Positions 1,038 through 16,890 of a stretch of DNA of 35,439 bases are shown here, one piece after another; position 1 is the first letter of the stretch, and every line of letters starts with the position of its first letter. Origin of the DNA: Alphaproteobacteria bacterium (GTDB taxonomy: Bacteria; Pseudomonadota; Alphaproteobacteria; G02398745; G023898745); the NCBI GenBank assembly GCA_027366195.1, contig DAHXKW010000146.1, positions 1 through 35,439 on the forward strand, in the 5' to 3' direction. A model generated the notes under the pieces. It had not been told where the DNA came from and did no database searches. It was given only the letters and a program-made list of their open reading frames with translations. Position numbers and translations under genes: made by a program.

Positions 1038-1110
1038 TGTCATCCTCGCGAAAGCGAGGATCCACAAACCGACCGCCGGCTAATAGATTCCCGTTTTCAT
1101 GAGGATGATA
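1038..1110 (+). repeat. Double-hairpin palindromic MITE/REP-like element, copy 1 (second hairpin degraded)
   Basis: tgtcATCCTCGCgaaaGCGAGGATc forms a perfect 8 bp stem with a GAAA loop (1042-1061). A ~25 nt spacer follows, then attcccgttttcatgaggatgata. It is collinear with the copy at 2009-2081. The ends tgtcatcc...ggatgata are imperfect terminal inverted repeats. Confidence 0.7.
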
Positions 1111-1142
1111 GTTCATTACATGATTTTTCAAAACTGATTGAA

Positions 1143-1370: not shown

Positions 1371-1426
1371 AAAAATGTAGGTAACATTCCATTTTATCAT
1401 AAAGAATTAGTTTCCCAACCCTTTAC

Positions 1427-1801
1427 TTAAGCAGCGCAACCACCGCAGCTTGGTTGAGGGGCTTCACATGCATTGCAGATGTTGCATGCAAGGCACTTGG
1501 AAATAAGCATGTGAGGTGCCAAGAATAGAAGAACTACAAGTAGTAGCGCAGCAATCATACCACCATCGACGAATACTAAGCCTAGTGTTGATAGTGTTAC
1601 GTCGATTGTGCCACCAAGCGTACCCGTGCCGCTTAAGGTTGTTGGGAATGTGGTAATTGGTGATGACGGAGCTGGTGTTCCTCCAGGTGCGCTAGATGTT
1701 ACGTTCAAGAATGTACCTTTATCACCGAACCAGAATACGAATAGGGTGAAGATAGCTGAAAAGCCAACGAATCCTAATAGGATCAAACCTAAAATTGTCA
1801 T
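1427..1801 (-). CDS. Small two-TM membrane protein with Pro/Ser/Thr/Gly-rich loop and Cys-rich C-terminal tail (paralog B), 124 aa
   Basis: Same architecture as 493-909. The loop NVTSSAPGGTPAPSSPITTFPTTL is nearly identical. The tail reads KCLACNICNACEAPQPSCGGCAA. An SD-like aaaggagg precedes the ATG. Confidence 0.75.
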   Translation of the reverse strand: MTILGLILLGFVGFSAIFTLFVFWFGDKGTFLNVTSSAPGGTPAPSSPITTFPTTLSGTGTLGGTIDVTLSTLGLVFVDGGMIAALLLVVLLFLAPHMLISKCLACNICNACEAPQPSCGGCAA

Positions 1802-1854
1802 AAAAAAACCTCCTTTAATTATTATTTATATACACATCTTCCGTGTACATTATT

Positions 1855-1884
1855 ATTATATCAAAAAATTAATTAAAATTACAA
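1855..1884 (-). promoter_or_regulatory. Candidate sigma70 promoter for the Cys-rich gene at 1427-1801 (same -35 TTGTAA / 18 nt / TGATATAAT)
   Basis: Minus-strand TTGTAA (1884-1879), an 18 nt spacer, then TGA+TATAAT (1863-1855). It is near-identical to 968-997. Confidence 0.5.
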
Positions 1885-2008
1885 ATATTTTTTATATTTT
1901 TTTAATTATGTTATTATATTGTTTAAGTATTTCCTTAAATAAACTTATTCAGTTTCGTGAGTTGAAGTGTTCAATGATGATACACAGAGATTTGAGCTAA
2001 GGTCTTAC

Positions 2009-2081
2009 TGTCATCCTCGCGAAAGCGAGGATCAATGAAGTGACCAACAGTCAATAGATTCCCGCTTTCGCGGGAATGACA
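2009..2081 (+). repeat. Double-hairpin palindromic MITE/REP-like element, copy 2 (both hairpins intact)
   Basis: Hairpin 1 is ATCCTCGC-gaaa-GCGAGGAT (2013-2032). Hairpin 2 is TTCCCGC-tttc-GCGGGAA (2059-2076). The termini tgtcat (2009-2014) and atgaca (2076-2081) are inverted repeats. The element lies immediately 3' of leuS. Confidence 0.75.
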
Positions 2082-2099
2082 AATTTGGGAATGAAGTAT

Positions 2100-4511
2100 C
2101 TATTGCATAACAAAACTGACCATACGTCCTGGTATGACAATGGTTTTGATTATATTTCCCGTTAAGAACGACGAGACGTGTTTTTTGGCCTCATCAATTA
2201 TATCTGATTCATTGATACCAGGACCCGCCTCAAATACAGCACGTTTTTTGCCATTTATTTGTACAACGATGGTATGTTTTTGTTCTGTAATGTAATCCGG
2301 ATTAAATATAGGCCAGAAGTGTTGATCAGAGTTAAGTAGCTCGGCCGCCAGGTGCGGCATGATAGGTGCAATGGTAATGATATAAATGTGTTTGATCTCA
2401 TTCCAAATATCAGAGTTCATGGTATCAAATCCTTTTTCAATCGCATTTCCAAGTTCACGGTGATGAGCGATAGCTTTGTTGAAAGCATGTTGTTCGTAGT
2501 CTTGGGTAATAAGTTTTAGATATTTATGGGCAATACCAAGTAATTCATCATTCCCTGTTTTTGCGGGTGGTATCATTTGAGTTAAGCGATAAATACGATT
2601 TGTATAACGCCAGCAGCCATCAAGCCCTTCGTCTGTCCATTCTAAATCTTTATCTGGTGGTGTATCTGACACAACAAACAACCGCGTTGTGTCAGCACCA
2701 TATTTATCAATGATTTCTTGTGGGTCAATGGTATTCTTTTTCGATTTGCTCATTTTTTCAGATCGGCCTATTGTTATAGGTTTTTTGGCCGTTTCTACTT
2801 CTTCCGGGTATATCCAATTTCCATCGCCATCCTTATAGGTTTTATGGCATACCATTCCCTGTGTTAACAGATGGGAGAATGGTTCGTCGAAGTTAACATA
2901 CCCCAAATCTCGTAAAGCTTTCACAAAGAAACGGGCATATAATAAATGCATAACAGCATGTTCGGGTCCACCAATGTACCAATCTACAGGATTCCACAGA
3001 TTTACAAGTGATGGGTCTAAAGGGACCTCAGCCTTTGGACAGCAATAACGAAGCCAATACCAAGAGGATTCAAAAAACGTATCTAAAGTATCCGTTTCTC
3101 GTTGTGCTGGGCTATGGCACTGGGGGCATGTTGTATGTTTCCAAGTAGGATGATGATCTAAGGGATTACCTGGTTGATCGAAAGTAACGTCGTCTGGTAG
3201 TTTGACAGGTAATCGTGTTTCAGGAATAGTCCCGCAATTTTCGCAATGTACCATTGGCACAGGACATCCCCAATAACGTTGGCGAGATATTCCCCAATCA
3301 CGTAAGCGGAATTGGATTGTTCCCTCGCCTTTATCTTCTTTTCTAAGATGCTCAACAACCTTTTTTTGCCCTTGTTCAATTGTTAATCCGTTTAAAAATT
3401 CAGAATCAAATATTTTATCCTGGTCATTGATGACAGGAATTATTGGCAAATTATATTTTAGTGCAAATTCATGATCTCTTTCGTCATGTGCGGGGCAGCC
3501 GAATAGAGCACCTGTACCGTAATCCATAACAACGAAATTAGCGACGTAGATCGGAAGTGGTTTGCCAGTAAAAGGATGTTGGGCAGTTAAATCTAATTTA
3601 TAGCCTTTCTTTTCGATTGTACTGATGACTTCTTCTGCTGTGGGGATAGCTTGGCATTCTTCGATAAATTTATTGAGCTTTGGGTCATTGATTTTTTCTA
3701 GAATAGGGTGATTGGCGGCAACAGCAACAAATGATGCGCCAAAGATGGTTTCAGGGCGTGTTGTATATATTTTGATTTTGTCATCATTACTTGTGTGAAA
3801 ATAAATATAGGCACCATGTGATTTTCCGATCCAATTTTCTTGCATTTTAACGATTCTATCGGGCCAACAGCCTTCAAGCTTTTTCAAGTTACTCAGTAGC
3901 TCATCCGCATATTTTGTTATACGCATAAACCACTGACGCATTTTTTTCTTTTCAACCATGGCTCCGGATCGCCACCCTTTACCATCGATAACTTGTTCAT
4001 TGGCTAAAACCGTATTTTCAACAGGATCCCAGTTAACATAAGATTCCTTTTGATAAATCAAACCTGCTTTATACATTTCAATAAAAAGCTGCTGCTCGTG
4101 TTTATAGTAATCTACATCACATGTGGCGAGTTCACATTCCCAGTCGTATGAGAAACCTAAAGATTTTAGCTGTTCACGCATTGTGGCGATATTAGCATAT
4201 GTCCATTTAGCAGGATGTTGTTTGTTTTGGAAGGCTGCATTTTCTGCAGGCAAACCAAACGCATCCCAACCCATTGGATGGAATACGTCGTAACCTTGCA
4301 TTCTTTTAAAGCGGGCTATTATGTCACCAATAGTGTAGTTACGTACGTGCCCCATATGGAGCTTACCGGAAGGATAGGGAAGCATTTCCAAAACGTAGTA
4401 CTTTTTATCTTTTCGCGGTGTGCCAACGGTATAAGTTTGTTCTTCAGCCCATTTTTTCTGCCACTTTTTCTCTGAGGCTTTAAATGAATAGACTGGATTG
4501 CCCGATGTCAT
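2100..4511 (-). CDS. leuS: Leucine--tRNA ligase
   Basis: 803 aa. It has the class I HIGH motif (PSGKLHMGHVRNY), KMSKS (SEKMSKSKKN) and typical LeuS blocks (RQRYWG, WDAFGLPAENAA). Confidence 0.97.
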   Translation of the reverse strand: MTSGNPVYSFKASEKKWQKKWAEEQTYTVGTPRKDKKYYVLEMLPYPSGKLHMGHVRNYTIGDIIARFKRMQGYDVFHPMGWDAFGLPAENAAFQNKQHPAKWTYANIATMREQLKSLGFSYDWECELATCDVDYYKHEQQLFIEMYKAGLIYQKESYVNWDPVENTVLANEQVIDGKGWRSGAMVEKKKMRQWFMRITKYADELLSNLKKLEGCWPDRIVKMQENWIGKSHGAYIYFHTSNDDKIKIYTTRPETIFGASFVAVAANHPILEKINDPKLNKFIEECQAIPTAEEVISTIEKKGYKLDLTAQHPFTGKPLPIYVANFVVMDYGTGALFGCPAHDERDHEFALKYNLPIIPVINDQDKIFDSEFLNGLTIEQGQKKVVEHLRKEDKGEGTIQFRLRDWGISRQRYWGCPVPMVHCENCGTIPETRLPVKLPDDVTFDQPGNPLDHHPTWKHTTCPQCHSPAQRETDTLDTFFESSWYWLRYCCPKAEVPLDPSLVNLWNPVDWYIGGPEHAVMHLLYARFFVKALRDLGYVNFDEPFSHLLTQGMVCHKTYKDGDGNWIYPEEVETAKKPITIGRSEKMSKSKKNTIDPQEIIDKYGADTTRLFVVSDTPPDKDLEWTDEGLDGCWRYTNRIYRLTQMIPPAKTGNDELLGIAHKYLKLITQDYEQHAFNKAIAHHRELGNAIEKGFDTMNSDIWNEIKHIYIITIAPIMPHLAAELLNSDQHFWPIFNPDYITEQKHTIVVQINGKKRAVFEAGPGINESDIIDEAKKHVSSFLTGNIIKTIVIPGRMVSFVMQ

Positions 4512-4667
4512 ATGTGTTTTTTTTATGATCTTGTCCTTTTATTCTACAACAGATTGAGCATAGGTTTTATCTCATGCTCCCATAAGTGACAATAGTAAAA
4601 TTTTCAGTTTTACTTTATTTATTTTTTAAATATATAATAAAAATAGGTAAATATTAATAAAAAATTA

Positions 4668-6044
4668 ATGGATCGCCTGGCGTTGGCCGCAGAGCTGATC
4701 ATCGGGCATGATTATGAATTAGCAATAGAAATGCTGAAAAAAGAACAGTCTTCAACAGGACTCTATTGGTTATCATTACTATATCGTTTATTCGATAAAT
4801 ATGCGGAAGAAAAAGAAGTTGTAGAAGCTGGCTTAAAAAGCACTTTAGAATCTGATTTGGTTGAGTATTTTTCTGCTCGGCAATATTGGCAGGATTTAGA
4901 CATTAATAAAAAAATGGTGCCACGCCAGTCTTTGCATATGCCGAGAAGTCCTTTGAAGATTCCAGATCCTGAAGATATAAGAAAGATGTGTTTTGTGACG
5001 GGTGGGGATTCAAATTATTTTCCACTTTTTGTGGAGGCAATTGAATCAATTCGTGCAACAAATTCATATAAGAATTGTGATGTGTTCGTATTTGATTGTG
5101 GTCTTACAGAAGAACAGAAGCGACATCTTCTAGAGGACTTACAGGTTAAAGCAGTGAGTGATCCAGGTTGGGATGTTAATGTGCCAATGACCTGCCAGCT
5201 TAATGAGCAAGGTGCGATTACTCAGTACCAAACACCTATTGGTTTTAAATGTATGGTAGCTAGACCCCATATGGATAAACATTTTCCTGGATATCGTTAT
5301 TATATGTGGATTGATGCTGATGCGTGGATTCAAGATGAGCGGGCAGTTGATTTATATTTAGACTATGCCAAAAGTCAGGGAATAGGGTTATCACATCACA
5401 TCACGTTTGATACTTATGATGACCACAATTGCTATTTTGTCCCACCTGTTTTAACGCCCGAAAATAAGATTTTCTTGAAAGGTAAACCTGCTGTTATTGT
5501 TTCTGCATTCTGTATAGATATTGAATCGGGTATATTCGATCAATGGCGTGAAAATTTCTATGACAATATAAAACAACAAGGATTTTGGTGGAATACGGAA
5601 GAACAGACTTTAGGATTAACTTTTCATCAAAGAAAGTTAAAGCATTTGGTTGAGCATCAAAACCACGCAGCTTTAGTGAGAGAAGGATTACCAATTGTTT
5701 ACGATAATGACAACGTCTTGCACTCGGCGCGTTCAAATCAGGTGTTAGGTACAATCCATATGAGTTCTGGGAAATGGTACCACTATTTCCCATCCCAGAA
5801 ACGCACGCACCCTATAAGAACGAATGAAGAATATCAGCATCACGTGCAACAGTATGGGTGGGGAAGCTTACGTGAGATTTGTTTTAAACACAAAATTGCG
5901 CCGAATCAGCTTGATGTACCCAATAGACATTTAATTTCTTGTAGATTCCGTGTATGGCCTTGGGAAGATAAGCCTGAGATAAAAGAGACACTTATTCAAG
6001 AAGCTAAAAGGGTATTGGTAAAGGGGGATGTATGTCACGTTTAA
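4668..6044 (+). CDS. GT-A fold (GT8-like) DxD nucleotide-sugar transferase-like protein with N-terminal helical module, paralog 1 (458 aa)
   Basis: CFVTGGDSNYFPLFVEAIESI...FVFDCGLTEEQK...ARPHMDKHFPGYRYYMWIDADAWIQDE resembles the GT8 blocks (xxAADDNY / DxGisxExk / RLxxPxLFPxxxKVLYLDxDxxV). No signal peptide or TM segment. A C-terminal FRVWPWEDK motif is shared with the next three genes. Confidence 0.8.
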   Translation: MDRLALAAELIIGHDYELAIEMLKKEQSSTGLYWLSLLYRLFDKYAEEKEVVEAGLKSTLESDLVEYFSARQYWQDLDINKKMVPRQSLHMPRSPLKIPDPEDIRKMCFVTGGDSNYFPLFVEAIESIRATNSYKNCDVFVFDCGLTEEQKRHLLEDLQVKAVSDPGWDVNVPMTCQLNEQGAITQYQTPIGFKCMVARPHMDKHFPGYRYYMWIDADAWIQDERAVDLYLDYAKSQGIGLSHHITFDTYDDHNCYFVPPVLTPENKIFLKGKPAVIVSAFCIDIESGIFDQWRENFYDNIKQQGFWWNTEEQTLGLTFHQRKLKHLVEHQNHAALVREGLPIVYDNDNVLHSARSNQVLGTIHMSSGKWYHYFPSQKRTHPIRTNEEYQHHVQQYGWGSLREICFKHKIAPNQLDVPNRHLISCRFRVWPWEDKPEIKETLIQEAKRVLVKGDVCHV

Positions 6045-7363
6045 ATGTTGCCGCTCAGCTAATTCGGGATGAAGAATATAAAACTGCGCTTGACATGCTT
6101 AAGCGGGATAACTCTTCTCAAGAAAGTTTATACTGGCAGTCTCTGATTTGTCGTTTGTTTGATCATTATGATGAAGAAAAGAAAATAATTGATATGGGGA
6201 TGCAAAAACATCCTAATTTTGTATATATGCAGGAAAGAGTGGTTTGGCATAAAAAGCCACTTTTTGATCGTTTGGTGCCACGGCAATCCCTACGTATGCC
6301 ACGAGATCCTTTGTTAACACCATCACAGTCAGCACTTGATCAGCTTTGTTTTGTAGTTGGTGGCGATAGCCATTATTTTCATATGATTGTTGAGTGTATA
6401 GAGTCTATTCGAGGGACAAGCCTTTATAAAGATGTGGCTGTTTGTGTTTTGGATTGTGGCCTTACAGATGACCAAAAGCATTATCTTGTTGAAGCTTTAA
6501 AAGTGGCTGAGATTCTTGCCGTTGATTGGCAGTATAAGGTCGATGGCTTTAAAACTTGTGATGGACCAGCACCAGAAGGTAAGTTAACACCATTGAATCC
6601 AGGACTTAAGGCTATTATGTCCAGGCCATTTTTGCATGATCTATTTCCTAATTATCGTTTTGTTTTTTGGATGGATGCTGATTCGTGGATACATGATGAA
6701 CGTAGTATTGATCGCCATCTTGATCTTTGTTTAAGGCAAGGTGTGGCGTTTGCTTTTCCTGATCGCATGCCGTTTTGTCAAAGATTGGTTTACCAATATC
6801 CTGTTATTGAACAGCGGTACAAGGAAAAATTGGCAAATTGGTTTCATGTTTCAGGAAATCAATGGGTTATTGATGCTCAAACGAACTTTTTTGAAGATTG
6901 GAAAAAATATTTAGATTATCACGCACAAAAATATGGATTTTGGCGAGCGATTGATGAAGAAAGCGCCATGATCGTTATGGAAGAACGTGGTATGACTGAA
7001 ATGCTGACTGAAAGAGATTTGTATATGTTGTACGCTTTTGGTTTGCCTGTTGTTAAAGACCAGTCGCAAACACTTTATCATCCCTGGAATGGGCAGGTAG
7101 TTGGTATTTTTTCAATGTTCCATCATAAATTTCAATATTATTGGCCAACAGTATTGTCGCCTTCAGGCGCTTTGTCTGAAGAACAGCTTAGGCAACATGT
7201 CCAAAATTATGCTCAATTATTAAAGATGGTGCAGCAAGGTCAGGATCCCTGTGGTTTGTATCCCGGTCAACCACAAATATCCCAGCACTTTAGAGTGTGG
7301 CCATGGGCAGATAAAGTTGAAATTCGTAGACTTTTAAAGGAGGTATCGCAATGTCAAAGCTAA
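6032..7363 (+). CDS. GT-A/GT8-like DxD transferase-like protein, paralog 2 (443 aa)
   Basis: CFVVGGDSHYFHMIVECIESI...VLDCGLTDDQK...SRPFLHDLFPNYRFVFWMDADSWIHDE...FRVWPWADK. SD AAGGGGGA lies at 6021-6028. The start overlaps the stop of paralog 1 by 13 nt. Confidence 0.8.
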   Translation: MSRLNVAAQLIRDEEYKTALDMLKRDNSSQESLYWQSLICRLFDHYDEEKKIIDMGMQKHPNFVYMQERVVWHKKPLFDRLVPRQSLRMPRDPLLTPSQSALDQLCFVVGGDSHYFHMIVECIESIRGTSLYKDVAVCVLDCGLTDDQKHYLVEALKVAEILAVDWQYKVDGFKTCDGPAPEGKLTPLNPGLKAIMSRPFLHDLFPNYRFVFWMDADSWIHDERSIDRHLDLCLRQGVAFAFPDRMPFCQRLVYQYPVIEQRYKEKLANWFHVSGNQWVIDAQTNFFEDWKKYLDYHAQKYGFWRAIDEESAMIVMEERGMTEMLTERDLYMLYAFGLPVVKDQSQTLYHPWNGQVVGIFSMFHHKFQYYWPTVLSPSGALSEEQLRQHVQNYAQLLKMVQQGQDPCGLYPGQPQISQHFRVWPWADKVEIRRLLKEVSQCQS

Positions 7364-8709
7364 AATTAGCTACAGCTTTCATTGCTGATCAGAATTACGA
7401 GTCAGCCAGAGACATATTAGAGAAGGAACAAAGAAATACTCACAATGTTTACTTTTTGTCTCTGCTCTACCGTTACTTTAATCAAATGCGTAAAGAGCAG
7501 ACTCTGGTAGAACAGGCAGTATCATTGGGATTAAGTAGTCAATATATTGAGGAACGAAGAAAATATTATAGTTTGCCAATTTTCGAACAACTTGAACCTC
7601 GACAATCCTTAATTTTACCTAAGGATCCAGCCAGAATTGCATCTGCAGGATCTTTGGAACAGCTCTGTATTGTAACGGGGGGTGGTAGCGATAAGCCTTA
7701 TTTTTATTTAATGACCCAACTGTTGGAGTCTTTAGAGGCTTGTCCAACTTATAAAAATGTTAGAAAAGGTATTATCGATTGTGGCTTAACAGATGAAGAT
7801 AAAAATTATTTGCTCAAAAATTTTTCGAATGTGGAAATAAAAACACCAAATTTGAATTTCAAGTTGCCAGACAAGGTCGAGCGTTTTACGCAAAAGGGTA
7901 ATTGGGGAATTTTGGCAAGACCTTTTATGGATAAACTTTTTCCGGGATACCGTTATTACATGTGGCTTGATACAGATTCTTGGGTGCAGGACGAGAGGAG
8001 TCTAGATAATGTGTTATGCGATGCAGAAAACTATAAACTGGGTGTTGTAGCCAGCCATTGTGGACGTGTTTATGCAGGTTCTTTTTGGGAGCGTTGGCAT
8101 AAAACGCCAATTGTGCCTGAATATATGTGGCAATTTTTGCATGATAATCCCTTCCCATTATTAACGGCCTCATGCTTTTGTATTGATGCGAAGAATACCG
8201 ATTTTTTCCCTAAATGGGGTAGATATTTGGAAGATCAAATGGAAAAAAATGGGTTTGATTGGGGCAACGATGAAATTACGTTCAATTATACAGTGCATAA
8301 AGATTTTCAGGTTTCTCGGGTTAATAGTCTTAACTATAACTTTGATTTGGGGGGAAGGGGGTTACCCAGGCTTAAACTAGATGAACCTGATGTTTTATAT
8401 TCAACGCTTGATGAAGAAGTCGTGGGAATCCTTCATTTATGTGGGATGGGATTGCATAAAAGTTATCCCCTTTGGCCGTGTCTTGTGCACCCAAGCTCTT
8501 TCACTGAAGAAGTTTTTCAGGCAAACCGTCAACGTTATCAACAGATTGTTCAGTTTTGTGATGCACATAAAGTTATGCCAGATCAGGTTAATGCAGGTAG
8601 CAATAGTCAAATAACTTCTTGTCATTTTAGAGTTTTCCCTTGGCGTGATAAGCAATCAATAATGAGTGCGTTGAAAAAGGAGGCACAAATATGTCTACAG
8701 AGCAATTAG
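7351..8709 (+). CDS. GT-A/GT8-like DxD transferase-like protein, paralog 3 (452 aa)
   Basis: CIVTGGGSDKPYFYLMTQLLESL...IIDCGLTDEDK...ARPFMDKLFPGYRYYMWLDTDSWVQDE...FRVFPWRDK. SD AAGGAGG lies at 7337-7343. There is a 13 nt overlap with paralog 2. Confidence 0.8.
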   Translation: MSKLKLATAFIADQNYESARDILEKEQRNTHNVYFLSLLYRYFNQMRKEQTLVEQAVSLGLSSQYIEERRKYYSLPIFEQLEPRQSLILPKDPARIASAGSLEQLCIVTGGGSDKPYFYLMTQLLESLEACPTYKNVRKGIIDCGLTDEDKNYLLKNFSNVEIKTPNLNFKLPDKVERFTQKGNWGILARPFMDKLFPGYRYYMWLDTDSWVQDERSLDNVLCDAENYKLGVVASHCGRVYAGSFWERWHKTPIVPEYMWQFLHDNPFPLLTASCFCIDAKNTDFFPKWGRYLEDQMEKNGFDWGNDEITFNYTVHKDFQVSRVNSLNYNFDLGGRGLPRLKLDEPDVLYSTLDEEVVGILHLCGMGLHKSYPLWPCLVHPSSFTEEVFQANRQRYQQIVQFCDAHKVMPDQVNAGSNSQITSCHFRVFPWRDKQSIMSALKKEAQICLQSN

Positions 8710-10037
8710 TTGCGCAATTAATTATTGATAATGAGTGGGATGCGGCTACCCAGATTTTGAGTAAAAGGCTAGAAACATCCAGTCACGTCAAAACACTATC
8801 CTTGCTATATCGATATAACAATCAATTCGAGCAAGAAAAGCAAGTTATCAGCCAGGCGCAAGAGTCGAGTTCGTATATAAAACAAAGGCGGGATTATTTT
8901 AATAAGTCAATTTGGGAACAATTAGAGCCACGTCAAAAGCTTTATATTCCAAAAGATTTTACCAAAGTACCCACTTTGGAAACTTTAGAGCAACTTTGTT
9001 TTGTAACAGCAGCAGGTAGCGACCACCCTTATTTTAGTTTGGTTTGGCAACTTATCGAGTCGCTCAAAAATACGAGTACATATAAGGATATTCCTATTAT
9101 GGTATTTGATGCGGGATTAACCGATGATGATAAGCAGAAGCTTCTATCTACTTTTTCTAACATTACCATCGTAGATCCGGGTTGGGATGTTGAAATAAAT
9201 ATGAACGCCACACGGGTGACACAAGCGGGATTGAAGGGATGTACAGCCCGACCTTATATGGATAAACATTTCCAGGGGTATAGATATTACATGTGGCTTG
9301 ATACGGATGTTTGGATACAAGATGAAAGAGCGTTAGATTCTGTTGTAAAACAAGCTGAAGAAGAGGGTGTGGGATGTGTGCAAGACCATTTATATGATAA
9401 TTGGCAAAATAGTTTTTGGGATATGAATAATCGTGTTAAACCAATAGTTCCTAAAGACTTTAGCAATTTTTTGACAACAAAAAAGACTGTTACGGGAGGA
9501 ACATTTTGTATTGATAAGCAATCTGGTTTTTTTGAAAAGTGGCAAGCTTATTTCAAACTAGCTATCGATGAATGTGGTTTTACGTGGGGGAGTGAGGAAA
9601 TTACTTTCTTATATACTGTCAATAAAATGCTTCCTAAAATTCAGCCCATTAGTCGTGTACATCAATTTTCTGGGTGTAGAAATGGTTTTCCCATTATTCA
9701 TGAAAAAGATCAAATATTATATACACCAGACAGCAATCAAATTATAGGTATTGTGCATTTAACAGGTTTTCTTTCTTTAAAAAATGATCCGTTTATACCT
9801 GTTGTATTGTTACCTAGGGATCAATTTGTACCGGTCAATCACCTAGAACAGAATAAGCAAATTTTTAATCAGTGGTTAGCCGCTCATAAGCAAATGGATA
9901 CTCAGCATCAGATTAATGTGTTTGAGAACACAAAAATGACTTCATTTCATTTCAGGACATACCCATGGAAAGATAAATCAGCAATACGAGAGGAGTTATT
10001 TCAAAACGTCAAAGCTGTCTTGGCTCAAGAGGCGTAG
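8691..10037 (+). CDS. GT-A/GT8-like DxD transferase-like protein, paralog 4 (448 aa)
   Basis: CFVTAAGSDHPYFSLVWQLIESL...VFDAGLTDDDK...ARPYMDKHFQGYRYYMWLDTDVWIQDE...FRTYPWKDK. SD AAGGAGG lies at 8677-8683. There is a 19 nt overlap with paralog 3. Confidence 0.8.
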   Translation: MSTEQLVAQLIIDNEWDAATQILSKRLETSSHVKTLSLLYRYNNQFEQEKQVISQAQESSSYIKQRRDYFNKSIWEQLEPRQKLYIPKDFTKVPTLETLEQLCFVTAAGSDHPYFSLVWQLIESLKNTSTYKDIPIMVFDAGLTDDDKQKLLSTFSNITIVDPGWDVEINMNATRVTQAGLKGCTARPYMDKHFQGYRYYMWLDTDVWIQDERALDSVVKQAEEEGVGCVQDHLYDNWQNSFWDMNNRVKPIVPKDFSNFLTTKKTVTGGTFCIDKQSGFFEKWQAYFKLAIDECGFTWGSEEITFLYTVNKMLPKIQPISRVHQFSGCRNGFPIIHEKDQILYTPDSNQIIGIVHLTGFLSLKNDPFIPVVLLPRDQFVPVNHLEQNKQIFNQWLAAHKQMDTQHQINVFENTKMTSFHFRTYPWKDKSAIREELFQNVKAVLAQEA

Positions 10038-10077: not shown

Positions 10078-10380
10078 ATGTTTTCTTTGCTTTATGCAGC
10101 ACCAACCAATCCACTAAATGGCTTGGATATTATGAGATTTTTGCCTTTTATCCTTATTTTCATAGTTTTTTACTTCTTAATTTTCAAACCTCAAAATGAT
10201 AAAGCAAAGCAACAAAAAGAAATGCAAACAGGTTTAAAGGTAGGAGATAAAATTTTACTTAATGGTGGTATATTGGGGAAAGTATCAAAATTAACAGGTG
10301 ATGAAGAGGTCCTTGTTGAGATCGCGGAAGGTGTAAAAGTACGCTGTTTGCGTAGTGCAATAATGGAAAAGAAGTATTGA
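10078..10380 (+). CDS. yajC: Preprotein translocase subunit YajC
   Basis: A single TM segment is followed by FLIFKPQNDKAKQQKEMQTGLKVGDKILLNGGILGKVSKL, the canonical YajC signature (RPQxKRxKexxxmxxxLxxGDxVxTxGGixG). The start may be the ATG at 10132 (MRFLPF...). Confidence 0.85.
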   Translation: MFSLLYAAPTNPLNGLDIMRFLPFILIFIVFYFLIFKPQNDKAKQQKEMQTGLKVGDKILLNGGILGKVSKLTGDEEVLVEIAEGVKVRCLRSAIMEKKY

Positions 10381-10910
10381 AGATATTACGAGTTTTTCTT
10401 TTTATATTTATAGGGTATTATCTCCTTCTTATATTTATTTTTGCTTATCAGGTATATAAGCCGAGTTGTCTTCCGAATCCGCAAAATCCACCTTCGGCCA
10501 TTATTGTGGCTACAGGGCAGGGTGGGAGAATAAAGGCTGGTGAGTGTTTAGCGCAGCAATATCATTGTCCTTTATTTATTTCAGGGGCTGGCTATAAAGT
10601 TAGGGCGGGAGAAATTATAAAAAATTTTAATTTAATCTCACGTGTTTTTTTGGGGTATGATGCTAAAAATACAGAGCAAAATGGTTTGGAAATTACAAAA
10701 TGGGTGAAAGAATTTCAGTTGATGTCGATTGTTGTAGTCAGTCATAACTACCATTTGCCACGTTTGTTGCTGTATTTGCGTCATATTCCTAAATTGATGA
10801 TTTATTTTTATCCTGTACGGGCTCCATTATCCTCATGGCGTTTTATTATGGAAATGCATAAGTATTATTTTGCTTATATAAAAGACATTTTAAAAATCCA
10901 TGCGTTTTAA
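10377..10910 (+). CDS. DUF218 / YdcF-ElyC-SanA family membrane-anchored protein
   Basis: An N-terminal TM helix is followed by IIVATGQGG...LFISGAG...VVVSHNYHLPRLLLYL, resembling the DUF218 vlVTSxxHmxRA block. The TTG start overlaps the yajC stop (TTGA). Confidence 0.55.
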   Translation: MKILRVFLFIFIGYYLLLIFIFAYQVYKPSCLPNPQNPPSAIIVATGQGGRIKAGECLAQQYHCPLFISGAGYKVRAGEIIKNFNLISRVFLGYDAKNTEQNGLEITKWVKEFQLMSIVVVSHNYHLPRLLLYLRHIPKLMIYFYPVRAPLSSWRFIMEMHKYYFAYIKDILKIHAF

Positions 10911-12376
10911 AGCATAAATATCTTTTCGATCCATTTTTTCTCTTCTAGAGTTAATAGCTCAGTAGCAATCAAATTTGTATCAATAGGAGCTTGAGTTAGA
11001 TTCTGGAAGTGATACCAGTCCTCATCTAAAGCTTCTACATAGGCCAAGTTTTCAATGCGTATGCCATAAGCATTAGTTTTATAAAATCCCGGCTCAATAG
11101 ATACGACCATGCCAGGTTGTAACGGTGTAGTGGAAGCCTTCGGGCTTATTGATGGTGGAGACTCATGGACATTTAAACAAGAACCCACACCATGCCCTGT
11201 TCCATGTCCATAGTTGCGGTGTTTACGCCATAAAAATTGTCGGGCCAAGGTATCTAATTGAATTCCAGTTGTGTCTTTGGGGAATACAGCTGTCATAAGT
11301 GCCAAGAAACCTTTGAGTACTAAGGTGAAATTTTCCTTTATCTCAAAAGGAGCTGTATTCGCTTTATAGAGAATTGTTCGTGTAACATCAGTTGTTCCGC
11401 CATAATAATGCCCACCTGAATCAACAAGATAAATATCTCCTGGTGTCAAAGTCCGGTTAGTCTCTGTTTTGGCTCGATAATGTACGATAGCGCCATGATC
11501 GGCCACGGCAGAAATCGTTGGAAAACTTGGAGCGATGAAATCCTTTTGTTCTTTTCGAAAACTAAGCAGTTCCTCTGCCGCACTTATTTCAGTGAAGGTA
11601 TCATTTGTTTCTGATAGCCACGATAAAAATTTTCTGATTGCCAGACCATCTTGTTGATGGGAATTTTTGAAACCTTCTAATTCTATAGGACTTTTACACG
11701 CTTTCATAAGTGTAATAGGGTTAGGCCTTGCTTTTGCATGAGGAAACTTTTGGTATATGGCCAGAGGAGCCATAGAATCTATAACTAAATGTTTCACTTT
11801 TTTGGGCTGTTCATCAACAGAACCATCCGCATAAATAGTGCAATAGTTTTCAATGGCCAAAGAATAGGGTTTATCAAAACTACGAATATTTAAAAGCCAA
11901 GATACTGAATCAGCATCAGTAATTAATAACGCGTCTGCTTTTTCTTTTTCTAAATATTTACATACACGCTGAATTTTAGAGGCTGAGGAATCGGTGTATT
12001 TTTTATATTCAGCAGTTTTGTATACTTGTCTTTTTGGCTTATTTGGCCAGAAACGATCTAACAAATGTTCATAGTGTATATGGGATAATCCCTCTAGTTC
12101 TGACTTTGTCCAAAGCCATGGATCAACTGTGACGTTTACTTCTGGTTTAATAAACGTTTTCCAGTGTTTATAATCATGTATTTTAATATCTTTAAAACAC
12201 TCGTTCTCTGCTTGTAGAGTATAGCGTGAGTCAACAAATAAATGTTTTTCTTGCTGGTCATCTATAATCAAGATTCCAAGAGATCCTGTAAATCCCGTAA
12301 GATGATGCAACAAATTATCCGCTATTTGTGTATATTCAGAACGAAATCTATCCCATGTTGGAATGATGTAATTCAT
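10907..12376 (-). CDS. pepP: Xaa-Pro aminopeptidase (M24B, aminopeptidase P family)
   Basis: HGTGHGVGSCLNVHE, VSIEPGFY and IRIEN are metal-ligand blocks of M24B. The N-terminal creatinase-like region contains LTGFTGSLG...FVDSRYTLQAE. At 489 aa it looks shorter at both ends than typical ~600 aa family members. Confidence 0.88.
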   Translation of the reverse strand: MNYIIPTWDRFRSEYTQIADNLLHHLTGFTGSLGILIIDDQQEKHLFVDSRYTLQAENECFKDIKIHDYKHWKTFIKPEVNVTVDPWLWTKSELEGLSHIHYEHLLDRFWPNKPKRQVYKTAEYKKYTDSSASKIQRVCKYLEKEKADALLITDADSVSWLLNIRSFDKPYSLAIENYCTIYADGSVDEQPKKVKHLVIDSMAPLAIYQKFPHAKARPNPITLMKACKSPIELEGFKNSHQQDGLAIRKFLSWLSETNDTFTEISAAEELLSFRKEQKDFIAPSFPTISAVADHGAIVHYRAKTETNRTLTPGDIYLVDSGGHYYGGTTDVTRTILYKANTAPFEIKENFTLVLKGFLALMTAVFPKDTTGIQLDTLARQFLWRKHRNYGHGTGHGVGSCLNVHESPPSISPKASTTPLQPGMVVSIEPGFYKTNAYGIRIENLAYVEALDEDWYHFQNLTQAPIDTNLIATELLTLEEKKWIEKIFML

Positions 12377-12461
12377 ATTATGCCAGAGAAGATAAGGTAC
12401 TCTGAGGGTTCCATGTTTAAGATGGATGTGTCAAGTTAAGTGCTTTAGGGAAGTTGGAAGA

Positions 12462-12698
12462 TTATTTTTTACGTTTAGGAGCAGGTTTTTTAGAGATAAC
12501 GACAGCTTTAGTTTTATTTTTTGATTGTACTTTTTTTTGATTCAATTGTTTAGATGGAGTTGGTTTGTTCGTGATGCTTTTTTCATCTTCCTTATCATCC
12601 AAATCTGCAGCGCTGGCATTAATGATCATTAAAATTATGAACAATATAACAATGATTCCAATAATTACAAATGACTGCCAGTTCATAAGACTCTCCAT
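12462..12698 (-). CDS. Hypothetical small membrane protein with Lys-rich C-terminal tail (78 aa)
   Basis: It has one clear TM helix (WQSFVIIGIIVILFIILMIINA), then an acidic patch, then a strongly basic tail (KKVQSKNKTKAVVISKKPAPKRKK). Its ATG overlaps the stop of the upstream ORF (TAATG). No family was recognised. Confidence 0.45.
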   Translation of the reverse strand: MESLMNWQSFVIIGIIVILFIILMIINASAADLDDKEDEKSITNKPTPSKQLNQKKVQSKNKTKAVVISKKPAPKRKK

Positions 12699-12991
12699 TA
12701 TTTATTATTACACTGTGTTGATGATACGAGGGTTGGCGCGACAGGTGACATTTGGGTGTTTGCCATGCAACCTGTTTCACATTCTTTTATAATTTCTAGC
12801 CAGGGTGAATCATGGTTTGTGTTATGTAAAACATTTCCAGCAAGTATGTTTAAAACATTTTGGACATGTTGCATGAGCTTATCATCTGTTTTGGACGGGG
12901 TTAAGGCCGTGATCGCTGTAGCAATTGTTACAATTAGGCTTGCTATCTGAAATAGTTGATAAATTGTCTCTTTATCAAATAATCTCTTCAT
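12698..12991 (-). CDS. Hypothetical protein (97 aa) with one hydrophobic helix
   Basis: ORF with the hydrophobic segment LFQIASLIVTIATAITAL followed by TPSKTDDKLM. It is translationally coupled (TAATG) to 12462-12698. No family was recognised with confidence. Confidence 0.45.
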   Translation of the reverse strand: MKRLFDKETIYQLFQIASLIVTIATAITALTPSKTDDKLMQHVQNVLNILAGNVLHNTNHDSPWLEIIKECETGCMANTQMSPVAPTLVSSTQCNNK

Positions 12992-13172
12992 CGCCAGCGC
13001 ATCCAGAATCTTTATAATATTATTATGAATTATATTATAATTAAAGTCAACTTTATTTATATTTTACTTAAATATATTAATAATAAAAATTGACAGATTC
13101 TAAAGGTGCTTTGTTGATATTTTTCAGTTATGCCTCATTGGTTTTGAAAGAAGTCTATTGTAAAGAGTATTT

Positions 13173-13490
13173 TTAAGATGATACTTTGATGCCCAAAATA
13201 CCAATAATGACTAATATAACAAATAAAAACTGTAAGCCATTAATATGTTCACCATACAAAAAGTGGCCGCAAGCAAGCAGGCCAACAGAACCAATCCCAC
13301 CCCAGATAGCATAAGCTAGACCTAGGGGAATCTGTTTTATTGCTTGAGTTAAAAAATAAAGACTCAGGATTGAAAAACCGATCACAAGACTTGTGGCTAT
13401 TGGCTTGCGGAAACCGTTTGAAAATTTCAATCCCACAGCCCAAATAATTTCAGACAAACCAGCTAAAAACAGCATGAACCAAGCGAACAT
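13173..13490 (-). CDS. sugE: SMR family transporter, SugE/Gdx-like (guanidinium/quaternary ammonium exporter)
   Basis: 105 aa with 4 TM segments. MFAWFMLFLAGLSEIIWAVGLKFSNGF aligns with E. coli SugE [26 protein letters not shown], including the conserved membrane Glu. PLGLAYAIWGGIGSVG matches PVGTAYAVWTGIGAVG. Confidence 0.9.
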   Translation of the reverse strand: MFAWFMLFLAGLSEIIWAVGLKFSNGFRKPIATSLVIGFSILSLYFLTQAIKQIPLGLAYAIWGGIGSVGLLACGHFLYGEHINGLQFLFVILVIIGILGIKVSS

Positions 13491-13509
13491 CAGAGTCTGA
13501 TGTGTATTA

Positions 13510-15212: not shown

Positions 15213-15383
15213 TTATCATTGATTTTATAGGGCCTAGATCATTCTAGCGGTAAATGGATAGAAGATCTATGGAATATTAGGCGTCTGTCAAATAAAAACA
15301 AAAACGAGAAAGTTTTATTTGTTTTTAATTTAATTCATAATATTAATATATAAAACATATTTGTTTTTACATTGGGAGGCATT

Positions 15384-16379
15384 GTGAATATTCCAATTAG
15401 TAGTCATATCTTGATTACAGGTGCTGGGGGATTTATTGGGGGGTGGCTCACCAAGTGGTTTGTTGAACATGGTTATAAACATGTAAGAGCTGTGGACATT
15501 AAATCTAAAAAGGATTGGTACCAAGTTCATGAAGATGCCGAAAATTTGGTTTATGATTTATGCCGACTGGAAGCTTGTGAGTTTGTAACACAGGATGTTG
15601 ATTATGTATTTAATTTGGCAGCTGATATGGGAGGCATGGGATTTATCGAAAATAACAGAGCCGCCTGTATGTTGTCTGTTTTAATCAATACCCACTTATT
15701 GATGGCGGCACAAAGGGAGGGGGTGAAGCGTTATTTTTATGCATCTTCGGCTTGTGTGTATGCGCATGATAAGCAAACTGACCCTAATGTCACCGCTTTA
15801 AGAGAAGAGGATGCATATCCTGCCATGGCTGAAGATGGCTATGGTTGGGAGAAGCTTTTTTCAGAACGTATGTGTCGGCATTTTTCGGAAGATTTTGGTA
15901 TGGAAGTTCGTGTTGCTCGTTTCCATAATGTATATGGTCCTTTAGGTACCTATACTGGAGGACGTGAAAAAGCACCAGCAGCCATATGTAGAAAAGTGAT
16001 AGAGGCAGTAATATCTGGAAATCATGAGATCGAAATTTGGGGTGATGGAGAACAAACCAGAAGTTTTATGTATATTGATGATTGCGTGGAGGGTATTTTA
16101 AAGATATTTGATAGTAATTTTGATCAGCCCATTAATTTGGGCTCTGCTGAGCTAGTATCAATAAATCAATTGGTTAGTTTGGCAGAAAAAAATTCTGGTA
16201 TTAAGTTGCTTCGTACTTATAAAAAAGATGCGCCTCAGGGAGTGAGAGGTCGTAATTCTAATAATGAGTTGATTCAACAAGTTTTGGGCTGGGAGCCATC
16301 AATCTCTTTACAAGAAGGATTGAAGAAAACGTATGATTGGATTTTTGTTCAAATGAAGTCTGGCAGCGCGAGAGGATGA
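15384..16379 (+). CDS. GDP-mannose 3,5-epimerase-like SDR (extended short-chain dehydrogenase/epimerase)
   Basis: From memory of the plant GME sequence, the blocks match block-for-block: ITGAGGFIG, VDYVFNLAADMGGMGFIENN (plant VDHVFNLAADMGGMGFIQSN), FYASSACVY, YGWEKL (YxxxK), ARFHNVYGPLGTYTGGREKAPAAICRK (plant GRFHNIYGPFGTWKGGREKAPAAFCRK), WGDGEQTRSF and PQGVRGRNSNNELI. The GTG at 15384 follows GGGAGG, and I prefer it to the track's TTG at 15372. Confidence 0.82.
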   Translation: MNIPISSHILITGAGGFIGGWLTKWFVEHGYKHVRAVDIKSKKDWYQVHEDAENLVYDLCRLEACEFVTQDVDYVFNLAADMGGMGFIENNRAACMLSVLINTHLLMAAQREGVKRYFYASSACVYAHDKQTDPNVTALREEDAYPAMAEDGYGWEKLFSERMCRHFSEDFGMEVRVARFHNVYGPLGTYTGGREKAPAAICRKVIEAVISGNHEIEIWGDGEQTRSFMYIDDCVEGILKIFDSNFDQPINLGSAELVSINQLVSLAEKNSGIKLLRTYKKDAPQGVRGRNSNNELIQQVLGWEPSISLQEGLKKTYDWIFVQMKSGSARG

Positions 16380-16888: not shown

Positions 16889-16890
16889 TT

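Follow-up and report, generated by a model that had tools for sequence, protein, structure and literature searches.

The 35,439-nt contig analyzed here in full (the window), from an uncultured alphaproteobacterium, carries four consecutive genes between leuS (2100 to 4511, minus strand) and yajC (10078 to 10380, plus strand), whose products, P1 to P4, raise the question of what diverged copies of one putative glycosyltransferase do side by side. ORF coordinates were checked, and the four plus-strand frames were confirmed at the expected positions from 4668 to 10037 (Table 1). Because successive genes overlap by 13 (P1/P2), 13 (P2/P3), and 19 nt (P3/P4), AGGAGG-type Shine-Dalgarno sequences lie within the upstream genes, and terminator prediction returned no internal terminators above chance, P1 to P4 are read as a single translationally coupled operon. 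The candidate promoter is a consensus match only, in a region where the total of such matches does not exceed that of shuffled sequences. No terminator was predicted between P4 and yajC, and yajC and the DUF218 gene are possibly cotranscribed with the array; their adjacency to arrays is not conserved in other loci.

Table 1. Coordinates of features in and around the P1 to P4 array
Feature	Coordinates	Strand	Remarks
Candidate operon promoter, sigma-70-like TTTACT-18-TATAAT	4609..4638	+	Best match, 10/12; leuS/P1 divergent intergenic region
Paralog 1 (P1)	4668..6044	+	458 aa; best-conserved array member
P1 TPR-like N-terminal cap	4668..4913	+	Residues 1-82, five to six helices; model and Foldseek
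P1 linker PRQSLHMPR	4920..4946	+	Residues 85-93, invariant R86; motif alignment
P1 GT-A catalytic core	4980..5807	+	Residues ~105-380; structure match and profile alignments
P1 DxD motif, D216-A-D218	5313..5321	+	Alignment
P1 C-terminal signature FRVWPWEDK	5946..5972	+	Residues 427-435, then terminal helix 435-453; alignment and model
Shine-Dalgarno-like AAAGGGGGA for P2	6020..6028	+	Within P1 3' end; translational coupling
Paralog 2 (P2)	6032..7363	+	443 aa; Ser at canonical His position (GIFSMFHHK), DxD kept
Shine-Dalgarno AAGGAGG for P3	7337..7343	+	Within P2
Paralog 3 (P3)	7351..8709	+	452 aa
Shine-Dalgarno AAGGAGG for P4	8677..8683	+	Within P3
Paralog 4 (P4)	8691..10037	+	448 aa; best Pfam matches of array, still subthreshold
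yajC and DUF218 gene	10078..10910	+	40 nt 3' of array
GDP-mannose 3,5-epimerase (GME)	15372..16379	+	GDP-L-galactose/GDP-L-gulose supply; 5.3 kb downstream of array

The four products are full-length paralogs (28 to 35% identity, E values of 7e-55 to 6e-75), a similarity far beyond chance. Identity to P1 was 34 to 35% by MAFFT, and BLASTP gave an E value of 6e-75 for P1 against P3 (33% over the full length) and 7e-55 for P2 against P4 (28%). Coordinates and both alignment methods agree with the preliminary description, which had called these same-strand genes clearly paralogous, and the shared motifs it quoted were found with small deviations. The linker reads PRQSL in P1 to P3 and PRQKL in P4, while the first-strand motif is CFVTGGDSNYF in P1, CFVVGGDSHYF in P2, CIVTGGGSDKPYF in P3, and CFVTAAGSDHPYF in P4. 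D(C/A)GLT(D/E)(D/E)xK and the C-terminal FR(V/T)(W/F/Y)PWxDKxxI are present in all four; P2 deviates around ARPxMDK and YRYYMW, with SRPFLHD and YRFVFW instead. The DxD, described as intact, is invariant (D216/D218 in P1). All four proteins are acidic (pI 5.8 to 6.1) and, as had been stated, soluble, with no transmembrane segment or signal peptide (maximum 19-residue Kyte-Doolittle values of 1.0 to 1.3, versus 2.6 for the YajC control) and no obviously basic tail for membrane binding like that of LgtC.

When the AF2 model (pLDDT 91.8, pTM 0.90) was compared with known structures using Foldseek, the top matches were all retaining GT-A enzymes, including UGGT (GT24; E 5e-7), LARGE1, GT6 enzymes, glycogenin, LgtC, and XXYLT1. 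The best of them, namely UGGT, the GT8 members LARGE1, XXYLT1, and glycogenin, and the GT6 alpha-Gal/GalNAc transferases (E values of 5e-7 to 4e-5, target-normalized TM of ~0.5 to 0.58), belong to the same retaining GT-A subclade but are eukaryotic luminal proteins with other accessory domains and 8 to 13% identity. Judged by the model, the core of P1 to P4 falls within the retaining GT-A clade of UGGT, LARGE1, LgtC, glycogenin, and GT6.

In Pfam, the window proteins stayed below the GT8 cutoff of 24.3 bits (best score, 15.0), and none had a direct PDB sequence match; P4 gave subthreshold Pfam matches to GT2 (E 3.9e-4) and GT8 (E 0.018). The link to GT8 is made by proteins of ~300 aa from Reyranella, Stellaceae, Azospirillum, and cyanobacteria that contain the core only. 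Their profile aligned with residues 102 to 369 of the family profile (hhalign probability 100%, E 4e-63), and they share VLDxGLT, ARPF...FPGY, WIDADxWxQD, and an ...R(F/Y) tail strand with P1 to P4. Pfam GT8 was matched by 22 of 63 core-only relatives (best E 5.5e-10), whose profile also matched LgtC (E 6e-7) and WbbM (E 6e-6). LgtC, the Neisseria LOS alpha-1,4-galactosyltransferase of CAZy family GT8, has a retaining GT-A fold and, like P1 to P4, is soluble without a transmembrane helix. Its catalytic D8/Y11, D37 (VLDxG), R86, and D103xD105 were matched in the core-only alignment; read off the printed alignments, the P1 equivalents are D114/Y117 (the nucleotide motif), D143, R199, and D216-x-D218, which all four paralogs keep. 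H364...K369 of P1 pairs with LgtC H244...K250 in a nonsignificant subalignment. Because of this profile bridge and the matching catalytic residues, P1 to P4 appear to be distant GT8 relatives, with homology that is transitive only, through the core-only proteins. The profile searches and structure comparison that the preliminary description had proposed thus bear out its GT-A/GT8-like core and place it in the retaining type, with Pfam itself remaining subthreshold. Compared with GT8 enzymes, P1 to P4 are ~130 to 150 residues longer, owing to an N-terminal cap and a C-terminal extension, and the HxxGxxKPW signature has shrunk to HxxG...K; they also lack the basic C-terminal membrane anchor of LgtC. 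Core-only proteins, some of which are annotated "glycosyltransferase family protein," differ in being usually single copy, standing alone amid housekeeping genes or fused into multidomain proteins of 900 to 1,100 aa.

The Ser of P2 at the canonical His position and its altered ARPxMDK and YRYYMW context might indicate that some paralogs, P2 especially, are noncatalytic pseudoenzymes scaffolding or regulating the active ones in a cap-held hetero-oligomer, for which the strictly co-occurring N- and C-terminal modules could provide the contacts. We regard this as very improbable, given that the DxD, the D114/Y117 motif, D143, and R199 are kept in four of four, that two His residues follow in P2 at three to four positions further on (FSMFHHK), and that its 77% identity to a true ortholog points to strong purifying selection over the whole length.

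The cap comprises ~80 residues in ~2.5 cryptic repeats, with S36, R40, Y67, and R71 (P1 numbering) invariant in the family. No Pfam TPR match was obtained for it, and all of its top 50 Foldseek matches were TPR domains, in keeping with the TPR-like module proposed earlier. The C-terminal extension, also ~80 residues, consists of two helices, a strand, RxWPWxDK, and the terminal helix. This motif, suspected to be foreign to canonical GT8 enzymes, is indeed absent from them and from the core-only relatives as well. Cap and extension co-occur near-perfectly (91 proteins with both, 89 with neither), and both are missing in 89 of 94 core-only relatives; together they may provide acceptor or partner recognition. 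What is new is this architecture, a TPR-like cap and RxWPWxDK extension on a GT8-like core, the kind of enzyme being already known.

TPRs also precede the glycosyltransferase domain in OGT (GT41) and in cyanobacterial TPR-GT61, -GT9, and -GT41 proteins, but those carry long canonical Pfam-recognized arrays on mostly GT-B domains, whereas P1 to P4 pair ~2.5 cryptic repeats on a GT-A core with a dedicated C-terminal extension. Such fusions are typically found in enzymes that modify proteins, OGT being one. The paralogs could accordingly glycosylate the bacterium's own proteins in parallel (e.g., surface, pilus, or flagellar), each cap recognizing a different substrate. The TPR fold, the acidic, soluble proteins without a membrane-binding tail, a cyanobacterial core encoded amid TPR-GT61, TPR-GT9, and MT24-TPR-GT41 proteins, and the glycoprotein glucosyltransferase UGGT as top structural match are all consistent with this. 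It nevertheless seems rather unlikely: no candidate substrate gene is conserved beside the arrays, UGGT ranks first by catalytic fold only (9 to 12% identity), and associations with sugar O-methyltransferases, GME, and other glycosyltransferases point to multisugar glycans. The cap itself may be structural, since it has only ~2.5 repeats and, in the model (pTM 0.90), forms a single compact unit together with the core.

A survey of neighborhoods and phyletic distribution, also suggested at the outset, showed the long form to be rare, with ~90 clusters out of 1.84 billion representatives and two loci across 185,579 species genomes; it has never been named. Core-only relatives are common, at 557 loci across the species genomes. 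Family members lie on contigs of 37 to 61% GC, including Verrucomicrobiota and Myxococcaceae MAGs. Arrays of 4 to 6 copies occur in six contig lineages, with common orthogroups, conserved order, and differing flanks. P1 orthologs in the five other arrays are 75 to 77% identical; array position 1 overall is 75 to 86% identical, comparable with LeuS (74 to 79%), and the other positions are 41 to 88% identical with presence/absence variation. In one array (L104), orthologs of P1/P2/P3/P4 are 76/77/64/63% identical within different flanks, and P2 is only 41 to 44% identical to the position 2 genes of the remaining arrays. The paralogs thus fall into ancient orthogroups, which fits the subfunctionalization previously suggested.

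The preliminary description had also raised an effector or toxin role. Clostridial glucosylating toxins (GT44) and Legionella Lgt1-3 (GT88) are soluble retaining GT-A enzymes of host-associated bacteria, with a DxD and a preceding helical domain, and a helical domain before such a core gives a superficial likeness to Lgt1. P1 to P4 would then be secreted or translocated (T4SS or T6SS) and glycosylate eukaryotic host proteins, the cap selecting targets that differ between paralogs. Their soluble, helix-capped architecture would suit this role, as would the fast divergence shown by P3, by P4, and by the nonorthologous array positions, and also the F-type tra genes and orphan tssK adjoining relatives' arrays. 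A host-associated organism is plausible, as the nearest named LeuS sequences are from Holosporales/Paracaedibacteraceae, protist-symbiont lineages (Finniella, Paracaedibacter, Odyssella), at only 52 to 55% identity. We nonetheless consider effectors improbable, and the idea gained no direct support. Sequence and profile searches gave no toxin or Lgt link even at E ≤ 10 (PDB) or E ≤ 1 (Pfam), and none of these enzymes was among the top 50 structural matches. The family is not confined to host-associated taxa, its long form occurring in Verrucomicrobiota and Myxococcaceae MAGs and, within ordinary glycan clusters, on contigs of 50 to 61% GC, while being absent from named Holosporales/Paracaedibacteraceae species among the 185,579 genomes scanned. 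Tight translational coupling and housekeeping-like conservation of P1 and P2 look more like a pathway than like an arsenal. Close relatives share the tssK/uvrD adjacency as a single synteny block, which the window lacks, and the tra genes, some of them split, are of the conjugative F type.

Elsewhere, many family members cluster with GT2, GT4, GT8, GT14-like, GT47-like, and FUT8-like genes, sulfotransferases, MT24 sugar O-methyltransferases, and GME. Examples are GT4, GT2, sulfotransferases, and GT1 (L095); a bona fide GT8 (E 1.7e-42), a kinase, a GT8-like gene, a sulfotransferase, PF03407, and a methyltransferase/GHMP-kinase fusion (L004); overlapping GT2, two GT47, two MT24, and an acyltransferase (L098); two family genes with MT24, FUT8-like, and GME (L087/L103); and one family gene with GT14-like and MT24 (L102). 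In a cyanobacterium (L066), a single protein joins the core to MT24 and TylF O-methyltransferase domains.

On balance, and with moderate confidence, we favor a reading of P1 to P4 as an assembly line in the cytoplasm, its product being a glycan of the cell itself that varies between lineages. They would be soluble, metal-dependent, alpha-linking enzymes of a deeply diverged GT8-like clade, binding nucleotide, sugar, and Mn2+ through LgtC-equivalent ligands, and each would extend, by one sugar taken from a nucleotide-sugar donor, the glycan being built on a lipid-linked or envelope glycoconjugate. A conserved inner linkage would come from the conserved first enzyme, and an outer part that varies between lineages from the later ones, which evolve faster or can be swapped. 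Here we infer that configuration is retained, as well as the type of donor, the order of the steps, and the acceptor; the conserved array order could stem from shared ancestry alone, and the acceptor may be a protein, because TPR domains bind proteins more often than glycolipids. Precedent exists in WaaO, WaaR, WaaT, WaaI, and WaaJ, tandem GT8 paralogs of the LPS outer core in E. coli and Salmonella, each of which contributes one hexose in turn, although the window array lies outside any waa-type locus. No export or polymerase gene adjoins the array, as had been noted, and the 35-kb window as a whole showed no flippase, polymerase, ligase, or lipid-A/core gene. The preliminary description had concluded that this is not a typical LPS or capsule locus; neither the missing neighbors nor the missing transmembrane helix counts against an envelope-glycan role, since LPS-core GT8 enzymes are likewise soluble or peripheral and encoded away from the flippase. 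Counting against an assembly line are P2 without the canonical His metal ligand, the acidic proteins without an LgtC-type basic tail, the window array without another adjoining glycan gene, some distant members beside radical-SAM or B12-radical-SAM genes instead of glycan genes, and the stand-alone core-only genes of Reyranella and Azospirillum.

P1 to P4 might instead decorate a metabolite, a peptide (RiPP), or a compatible solute. Distant members (L097, L098, and L099) have as neighbors small ORFs and genes for radical-SAM, B12-radical-SAM, racemase, AMP-binding, and methyltransferase proteins. Some retaining GT-A enzymes make solutes, e.g., glucosyl- or mannosylglycerate, and the TylF domain fused to the L066 core resembles macrocin O-methyltransferase. 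Such a role is decidedly improbable, as 4 to 6 paralogs for a single metabolite would be unusual, polysaccharide-type genes accompany most loci, and the arrays of the window and close relatives have no PKS, NRPS, or precursor peptide nearby. For an assembly line making a cell-own glycan, the window GME is a possible functional partner: it matches plant GME (E 6e-94) and is 80% identical to the GME that closes a family-containing glycan cluster of relatives.

The window carries, between leuS and yajC, four consecutive same-strand genes (P1 to P4) whose positions agree exactly with those in the preliminary description. Their paralogy, also proposed there, extends over the full length of the proteins, with 34 to 35% identity to P1 in a MAFFT alignment and BLASTP E values of 6e-75 for P1 versus P3 and 7e-55 for P2 versus P4. 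The motifs quoted earlier are present, apart from minor differences (PRQKL in P4 and an altered ARPxMDK/YRYYMW context in P2); DxD and FRxxPWxDK are invariant across the four. As had been noted, the proteins lack a hydrophobic segment or signal peptide, with maximal KD19 values of 1.0 to 1.3 compared to 2.6 in YajC. Successive genes overlap by 13 to 19 nt, strong Shine-Dalgarno sequences (GGGGGA, AGGAGG, and AGGAGG) lie inside each preceding gene, the top promoter-like match falls within the leuS-P1 gap, and no terminator was predicted between P4 and yajC; therefore, P1 to P4 form a translationally coupled operon. The yajC gene, found here away from its usual tgt-yajC-secDF setting, starts 40 nt past the array, with no predicted terminator between them, and shares a 4-nt overlap with a DUF218 gene; both may be cotranscribed with P1 to P4.

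Coordinates of the features discussed, in the window and in other contig loci (L numbers) that carry family genes; "eukaryote-type" marks partner-cluster genes of families better known in eukaryotes (the FUT8-like one weakly so)
Locus	Feature	Position	Strand	Remark
Window	leuS	2100-4511	-	Upstream flank of array
Window	P1-P4 array	4668-10037	+	
Window	P1	4668-6044	+	ORF, 458 aa
Window	P2	6032-7363	+	ORF, 443 aa
Window	P3	7351-8709	+	ORF, 452 aa
Window	P4	8691-10037	+	ORF, 448 aa
Window	yajC	10078-10380	+	Downstream flank of array
Window	yajC and DUF218 pair	10078-10910	+	
Window	GDP-mannose 3,5-epimerase gene	15372-16379	+	5.3 kb downstream of array
Window	PIN-domain (VapC-type) toxin gene	18158-18544	-	Close pair with next; room upstream for short antitoxin ORF
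Window	PIN-domain (VapC-type) toxin gene	18838-19242	-	Room upstream for short antitoxin ORF
Window	Likely lipoyl-synthase gene	28966-29832	-	Sequence inspection only
Window	160-aa ORF	29372-29854	+	Antisense, almost wholly within likely lipoyl-synthase gene
Window	Stand-alone 249-aa protein	29829-30578	-	Polyketide-synthase dehydratase (PS-DH hotdog) domain, E 3.7e-7
L087	Eukaryote-type glycosyltransferase gene	14064-14948		
L102	Eukaryote-type glycosyltransferase gene	5531-6376		
L098	Eukaryote-type glycosyltransferase genes	78-1016, 7154-7708		
L066	Eukaryote-type glycosyltransferase genes	7297-9894, 16260-19319		
L099	88-aa ORF	5735-6001	+	Overlaps start of family gene
L099	Region noted with the 88-aa ORF	2056-5334	-	
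L104	tra/tssK neighbors of array	661-5522, 10952-14444		
L092	tra/tssK neighbors of array	1371-2651		
L084	tra/tssK neighbors of array	17902-19218		
L090	tra/tssK neighbors of array	7498-8838		

No earlier description of proteins of this type was found in the searchable literature, and no Pfam or NCBIfam library profile covers P1 to P4 above threshold. The best sub-threshold Pfam matches both belong to P4 (GT2, E 3.9e-4; GT8, E 0.018), which scores 15.0 bits against the GT8 (PF01501) gathering cutoff of 24.3 bits, and P1 to P3 gave no GT8 match. An NCBIfam scan returned nothing relevant, and a PDB sequence search with a profile of the four paralogs (E ≤ 10) returned only noise, with all E values above 1. 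An AF2 model built from a 30-sequence family alignment was predicted as a confident single body (pLDDT 91.8, pTM 0.90) composed of six short N-terminal helices (residues 3 to 82), a GT-A core (about 105 to 380), and a C-terminal extension of two helices, a strand (420 to 424), the RVWPW motif, and a terminal helix (435 to 453). The best-ranked Foldseek matches in the PDB were exclusively retaining GT-A glycosyltransferases, led by UGGT/GT24 (E 5e-7) and followed by LARGE1, GT6 enzymes, glycogenin, LgtC, and XXYLT1, with identities of 8 to 13% throughout. All of these lie within the top 50 matches. The model bears out the GT-A core that had been read from motifs and places it in the retaining sub-clade. 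The BFVD viral structure library yielded generic GT-A/GT8-like matches only, none nearer than those in the PDB.

The relationship to GT8 runs through core-only relatives, proteins of about 300 aa lacking both the N-terminal cap and the C-terminal extension of the full-length (long-form) members. An hhalign comparison of the family profile with the core-only profile gave a probability of 100% (E 4e-63) over residues 102 to 369. Pfam GT8 is matched by 22 of 63 core-only relatives (best E 5.5e-10), and the profile of these relatives matches LgtC (E 6e-7) and WbbM (E 6e-6) in the PDB. Judged from sequence, P1 to P4 would belong to GT8 transitively only, by way of the core-only relatives. The DxD, previously described as intact, is D216-x-D218, invariant in P1 to P4 and nearly so in the 30-sequence family alignment, and the bridge profile aligns it in P1 to LgtC D103/D105. 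Read from alignments, P1 D114/Y117 correspond to the nucleotide-binding D-x-x-Y of LgtC (D8/Y11), R199 to the sugar-binding R86, and D143 to D37, all of which are kept in the four paralogs. P1 H364...K369 is probably equivalent to LgtC H244...K250, a correspondence taken from a non-significant sub-alignment; the arrangement H364-x-x-x-G-K369 has similar counterparts in P3 and P4, and in P2 a Ser replaces the His, with two His just downstream. P1 to P4 differ from the GT8 signature H-x-x-G-x-x-K-P-W, which provides the third metal ligand and phosphate-binding Lys, in that KPW is absent. Since the LgtC-equivalent residues are kept in all four, apart from the His-to-Ser change in P2, P1 to P4 look catalytically competent, and we regard an array that is partly made up of non-catalytic paralogs as very improbable.

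Modeled alone, the N-terminal 98 residues reached a pLDDT of 85.6, and all of the 50 best Foldseek matches were TPR domains with an antiparallel helix-hairpin fold, in keeping with the TPR-like pattern first noted by eye. These matches had TM scores of 0.5 to 0.66 and rmsd values of 2 to 3 Å over about 78 columns, with E values of only 0.15 to 0.9 because the domain is short. The sequence profile of the cap weakly matched kinesin light chain and CTPR among PDB sequences (E 0.008 to 0.1), and no Pfam TPR model matched P1 to P4 at E ≤ 1. Together, these data predict that the cap is TPR-like, cryptic at the sequence level, and about 2.5 repeats long. It contains invariant Arg and Tyr residues, which might line the active site together with the WPW motif. 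Of the 188 retrieved family proteins whose core is complete, 91 have both cap and C-terminal extension and 89 have neither, while the 8 mismatched proteins are probably fragments; the strict RxWPWxDK motif was never seen without the cap in the retrieved proteins. Core-only relatives terminate in a short ...R(F/Y) strand, which probably corresponds to the "FR" of this motif, and the WPWxDK-plus-helix segment and an insertion at residues 380 to 418 are specific to the long form. A search of 5.8 billion proteins with the cap-alone profile returned only two short fragments, without any further architecture, and its sensitivity is doubtful, as full-length members were unexpectedly not relisted. On present evidence, P1 to P4 are a new architectural variant of a well-known kind of enzyme, not a new kind of system. 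If confirmed, they would define an uncharacterized, rare subfamily of retaining GT-A glycosyltransferases, possibly a new CAZy-level family, whose novelty is the constant association of a cryptic TPR cap with an RxWPWxDK extension at the C terminus. This pairing may give a GT8-type core a new way to recognize its acceptor or partners.

A word-seeded search of 5.8 billion proteins returned about 28 relatives, all named only "hypothetical protein," and no other name was found for full-length members in any source. Exhaustive HMMER analysis of 1.84 billion representatives placed the long form in about 90 clusters at 50% identity. Across 185,579 species-representative genomes, a set that excludes the window's own lineage, the long form is rare, with only two loci, in one MAG each of Verrucomicrobiota and Myxococcaceae; the core-only form is common there (557 loci), mainly in Reyranella, Stellaceae, Rhodospirillales, and cyanobacteria. 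In Reyranella, a core-only gene stands alone between ffh and dapF/ftsY and gives no functional clue, and the only matches in a plasmid collection were core-only homologs from Azospirillum, whose context was uninformative. The window LeuS is 74 to 79% identical to metagenome proteins, 59% to an alphaproteobacterial MAG, and 52 to 55% to Finniella, Paracaedibacter, Odyssella, and Holosporales sequences, which indicates an uncultured alphaproteobacterium of low GC content (37%), for which host association is plausible.

Arrays in close relatives hold six (L084), five (L090, L092, and L093), or four (L104, on contig Ga0074198_1000404) family genes, and a tree and identity matrix showed that the orthogroups are ancient and their order conserved. 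Position 1 is 82 to 86% identical among relatives and 75 to 77% identical to P1, close to the conservation of LeuS between the window and its nearest metagenome homologs (74 to 79%). Position 2 is 68 to 87% identical among relatives and only 41 to 44% identical to P2, two middle orthogroups of the relatives' arrays are missing from the window, and P3 and P4 share at most 42% identity with any gene in the L084, L090, L092, and L093 arrays. L104 carries true orthologs of the whole window array (76, 77, 64, and 63% identity) flanked by F-type TraD/TraG genes and tssK/uvrD instead of leuS/yajC; the array is thus conserved as a unit but varies in location and composition. Such arrays of four to six ancient paralogs, with one member conserved and the rest swappable, would provide a compact natural system for the diversification of glycosyltransferase specificity. 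In relatives, genes for F-type conjugative transfer adjoin the arrays (TraG_N, TraH, and a TraD divided into ORFs of 333 and 183 aa), and an orphan tssK (TIGR03353, E 2e-53) lies beside uvrD downstream; neither adjoins the window array. This setting suggests that a decaying integrative conjugative element may carry or adjoin the array.

A second cluster lies about 15 kb from the array on the 47.8-kb contig Ga0074198_1000404 and was also found as L087. It comprises two more family genes (products of 427 and 409 aa), a 265-aa protein, a Methyltransf_24 (MT24; sugar O-methyltransferase) gene, a weakly FUT8-like protein, and, at its end, a GDP-mannose 3,5-epimerase (GME). The window GME is 80% identical to this GME and matches the Arabidopsis enzyme (2c59) at E 6e-94, with a bit score three-fold that of the next SDR family, which implies GDP-L-galactose/GDP-L-gulose synthesis in the window organism. 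It is the sole match, as no homolog of the 265-aa, MT24, or FUT8-like genes was found in the window. Bacterial GME is little studied, the first having been characterized only in 2019, and its role in LPS is a hypothesis only (PMC6678494). Elsewhere, a family gene is accompanied by a GT14 "Branch"-like gene and MT24 (L102); by an overlapping GT2 gene along with two GT47-like, two MT24, and one acyltransferase gene (L098); by GT4, GT2, sulfotransferase, and GT1 genes (L095); and, in Verrucomicrobiota (L004), by a bona fide GT8, a kinase, a GT8-like gene, a sulfotransferase, PF03407, and a methyltransferase/GHMP-kinase fusion. In Phormidium (L066), a fusion protein combines the core with MT24 and TylF O-methyltransferase domains, and its gene neighbors TPR-GT61, TPR-GT9, and MT24-TPR-GT41 genes. 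The genes that recur beside the family are thus those of further glycosyltransferases and of sugar-modifying enzymes, above all MT24. The link to bacterial GME and sugar O-methyltransferases hints that this uncultured alphaproteobacterial lineage makes unusual glycans (with L-galactose and methylated sugars).

Partner clusters are also rich in glycosyltransferase families better known in eukaryotes (FUT8-like, weakly; GT14 Core-2/I-branching; GT47 exostosin; GT61; and GT41), and eukaryote-like glycans are a possibility. L097 and L099 have radical-SAM genes in place of glycan genes: in L099, radical-SAM, B12-binding radical-SAM, and Asp/Glu-racemase genes accompany the 88-aa ORF in a RiPP-like arrangement, and L097 has a similar radical-SAM/B12-radical-SAM context. 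As the preliminary description held of LPS loci, the array does not lie in a waa-type LPS/LOS core locus: Kdo transferase, heptosyltransferases, core kinases, and ligase are all absent from the 35 kb of the window; L004, with its GT8, kinase, and GT8-like gene, is the sole family locus resembling one.

Most likely, these genes serve ordinary glycan biosynthesis by an unusual enzyme architecture. We lean, at somewhat better than even confidence, toward a cytoplasmic assembly line in which four Mn2+/DxD-dependent retaining glycosyltransferases would successively extend a glycan of the cell's own. The analysis shows the fold, motifs, coupling, orthogroups, and gene associations; donor, acceptor, order of action, and module roles are inferred. 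P1 would catalyze a conserved inner step, later members would build a lineage-variable outer part, and the TPR cap and C-terminal extension would recognize the acceptor or a partner. The same enzymes might instead glycosylate bacterial proteins in parallel, which we consider rather unlikely, or glycosylate metabolites, which is a good deal more doubtful.

The preliminary description had also raised host-directed effectors or toxins, a role that we now judge improbable. No sequence link to toxin (TcdA/TcdB) or Lgt families emerged: the four-paralog profile found no such PDB chain at E ≤ 10, and no Pfam toxin family matched at E ≤ 1. Unlike GT44/GT88 effectors, the family is not limited to pathogens or symbionts; full-length members are present in MAGs of Verrucomicrobiota and Myxococcaceae and, within glycan clusters, on contigs of 50 to 61% GC. 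The pathway-like operon also argues against effectors. As evidence of translocation, the tra genes and tssK beside relatives' arrays are circumstantial only, and tssK as a T6SS-effector signal was set aside, being an orphan gene in one synteny block common to close relatives and absent from the window. PADLOC and PHROGs searches gave no match and thus no link to a defense system or phage family. A bolder but quite unlikely reading takes the array together with the relatives' partner cluster (GME, FUT8-like, GT14-like, and MT24), in an uncultured, possibly protist-associated lineage. The array would then either encode a diversifying set of protein glycosyltransferases that are targeted by their TPR caps and reach, or act on, a eukaryotic host, or build a eukaryote-like surface glycan that contains L-galactose and mimics the host; in both cases, the TPR-capped long form would constitute a new glycosyltransferase family at CAZy level that recognizes acceptors by a new mechanism.

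Scanning the window for Rfam families and tRNAs gave no match. The 160-aa antisense ORF falls in the highest-GC kilobase of the window (43%) and is probably spurious. The PS-DH gene shares 4 nt with the beginning of the likely lipoyl-synthase gene that lies downstream of it.
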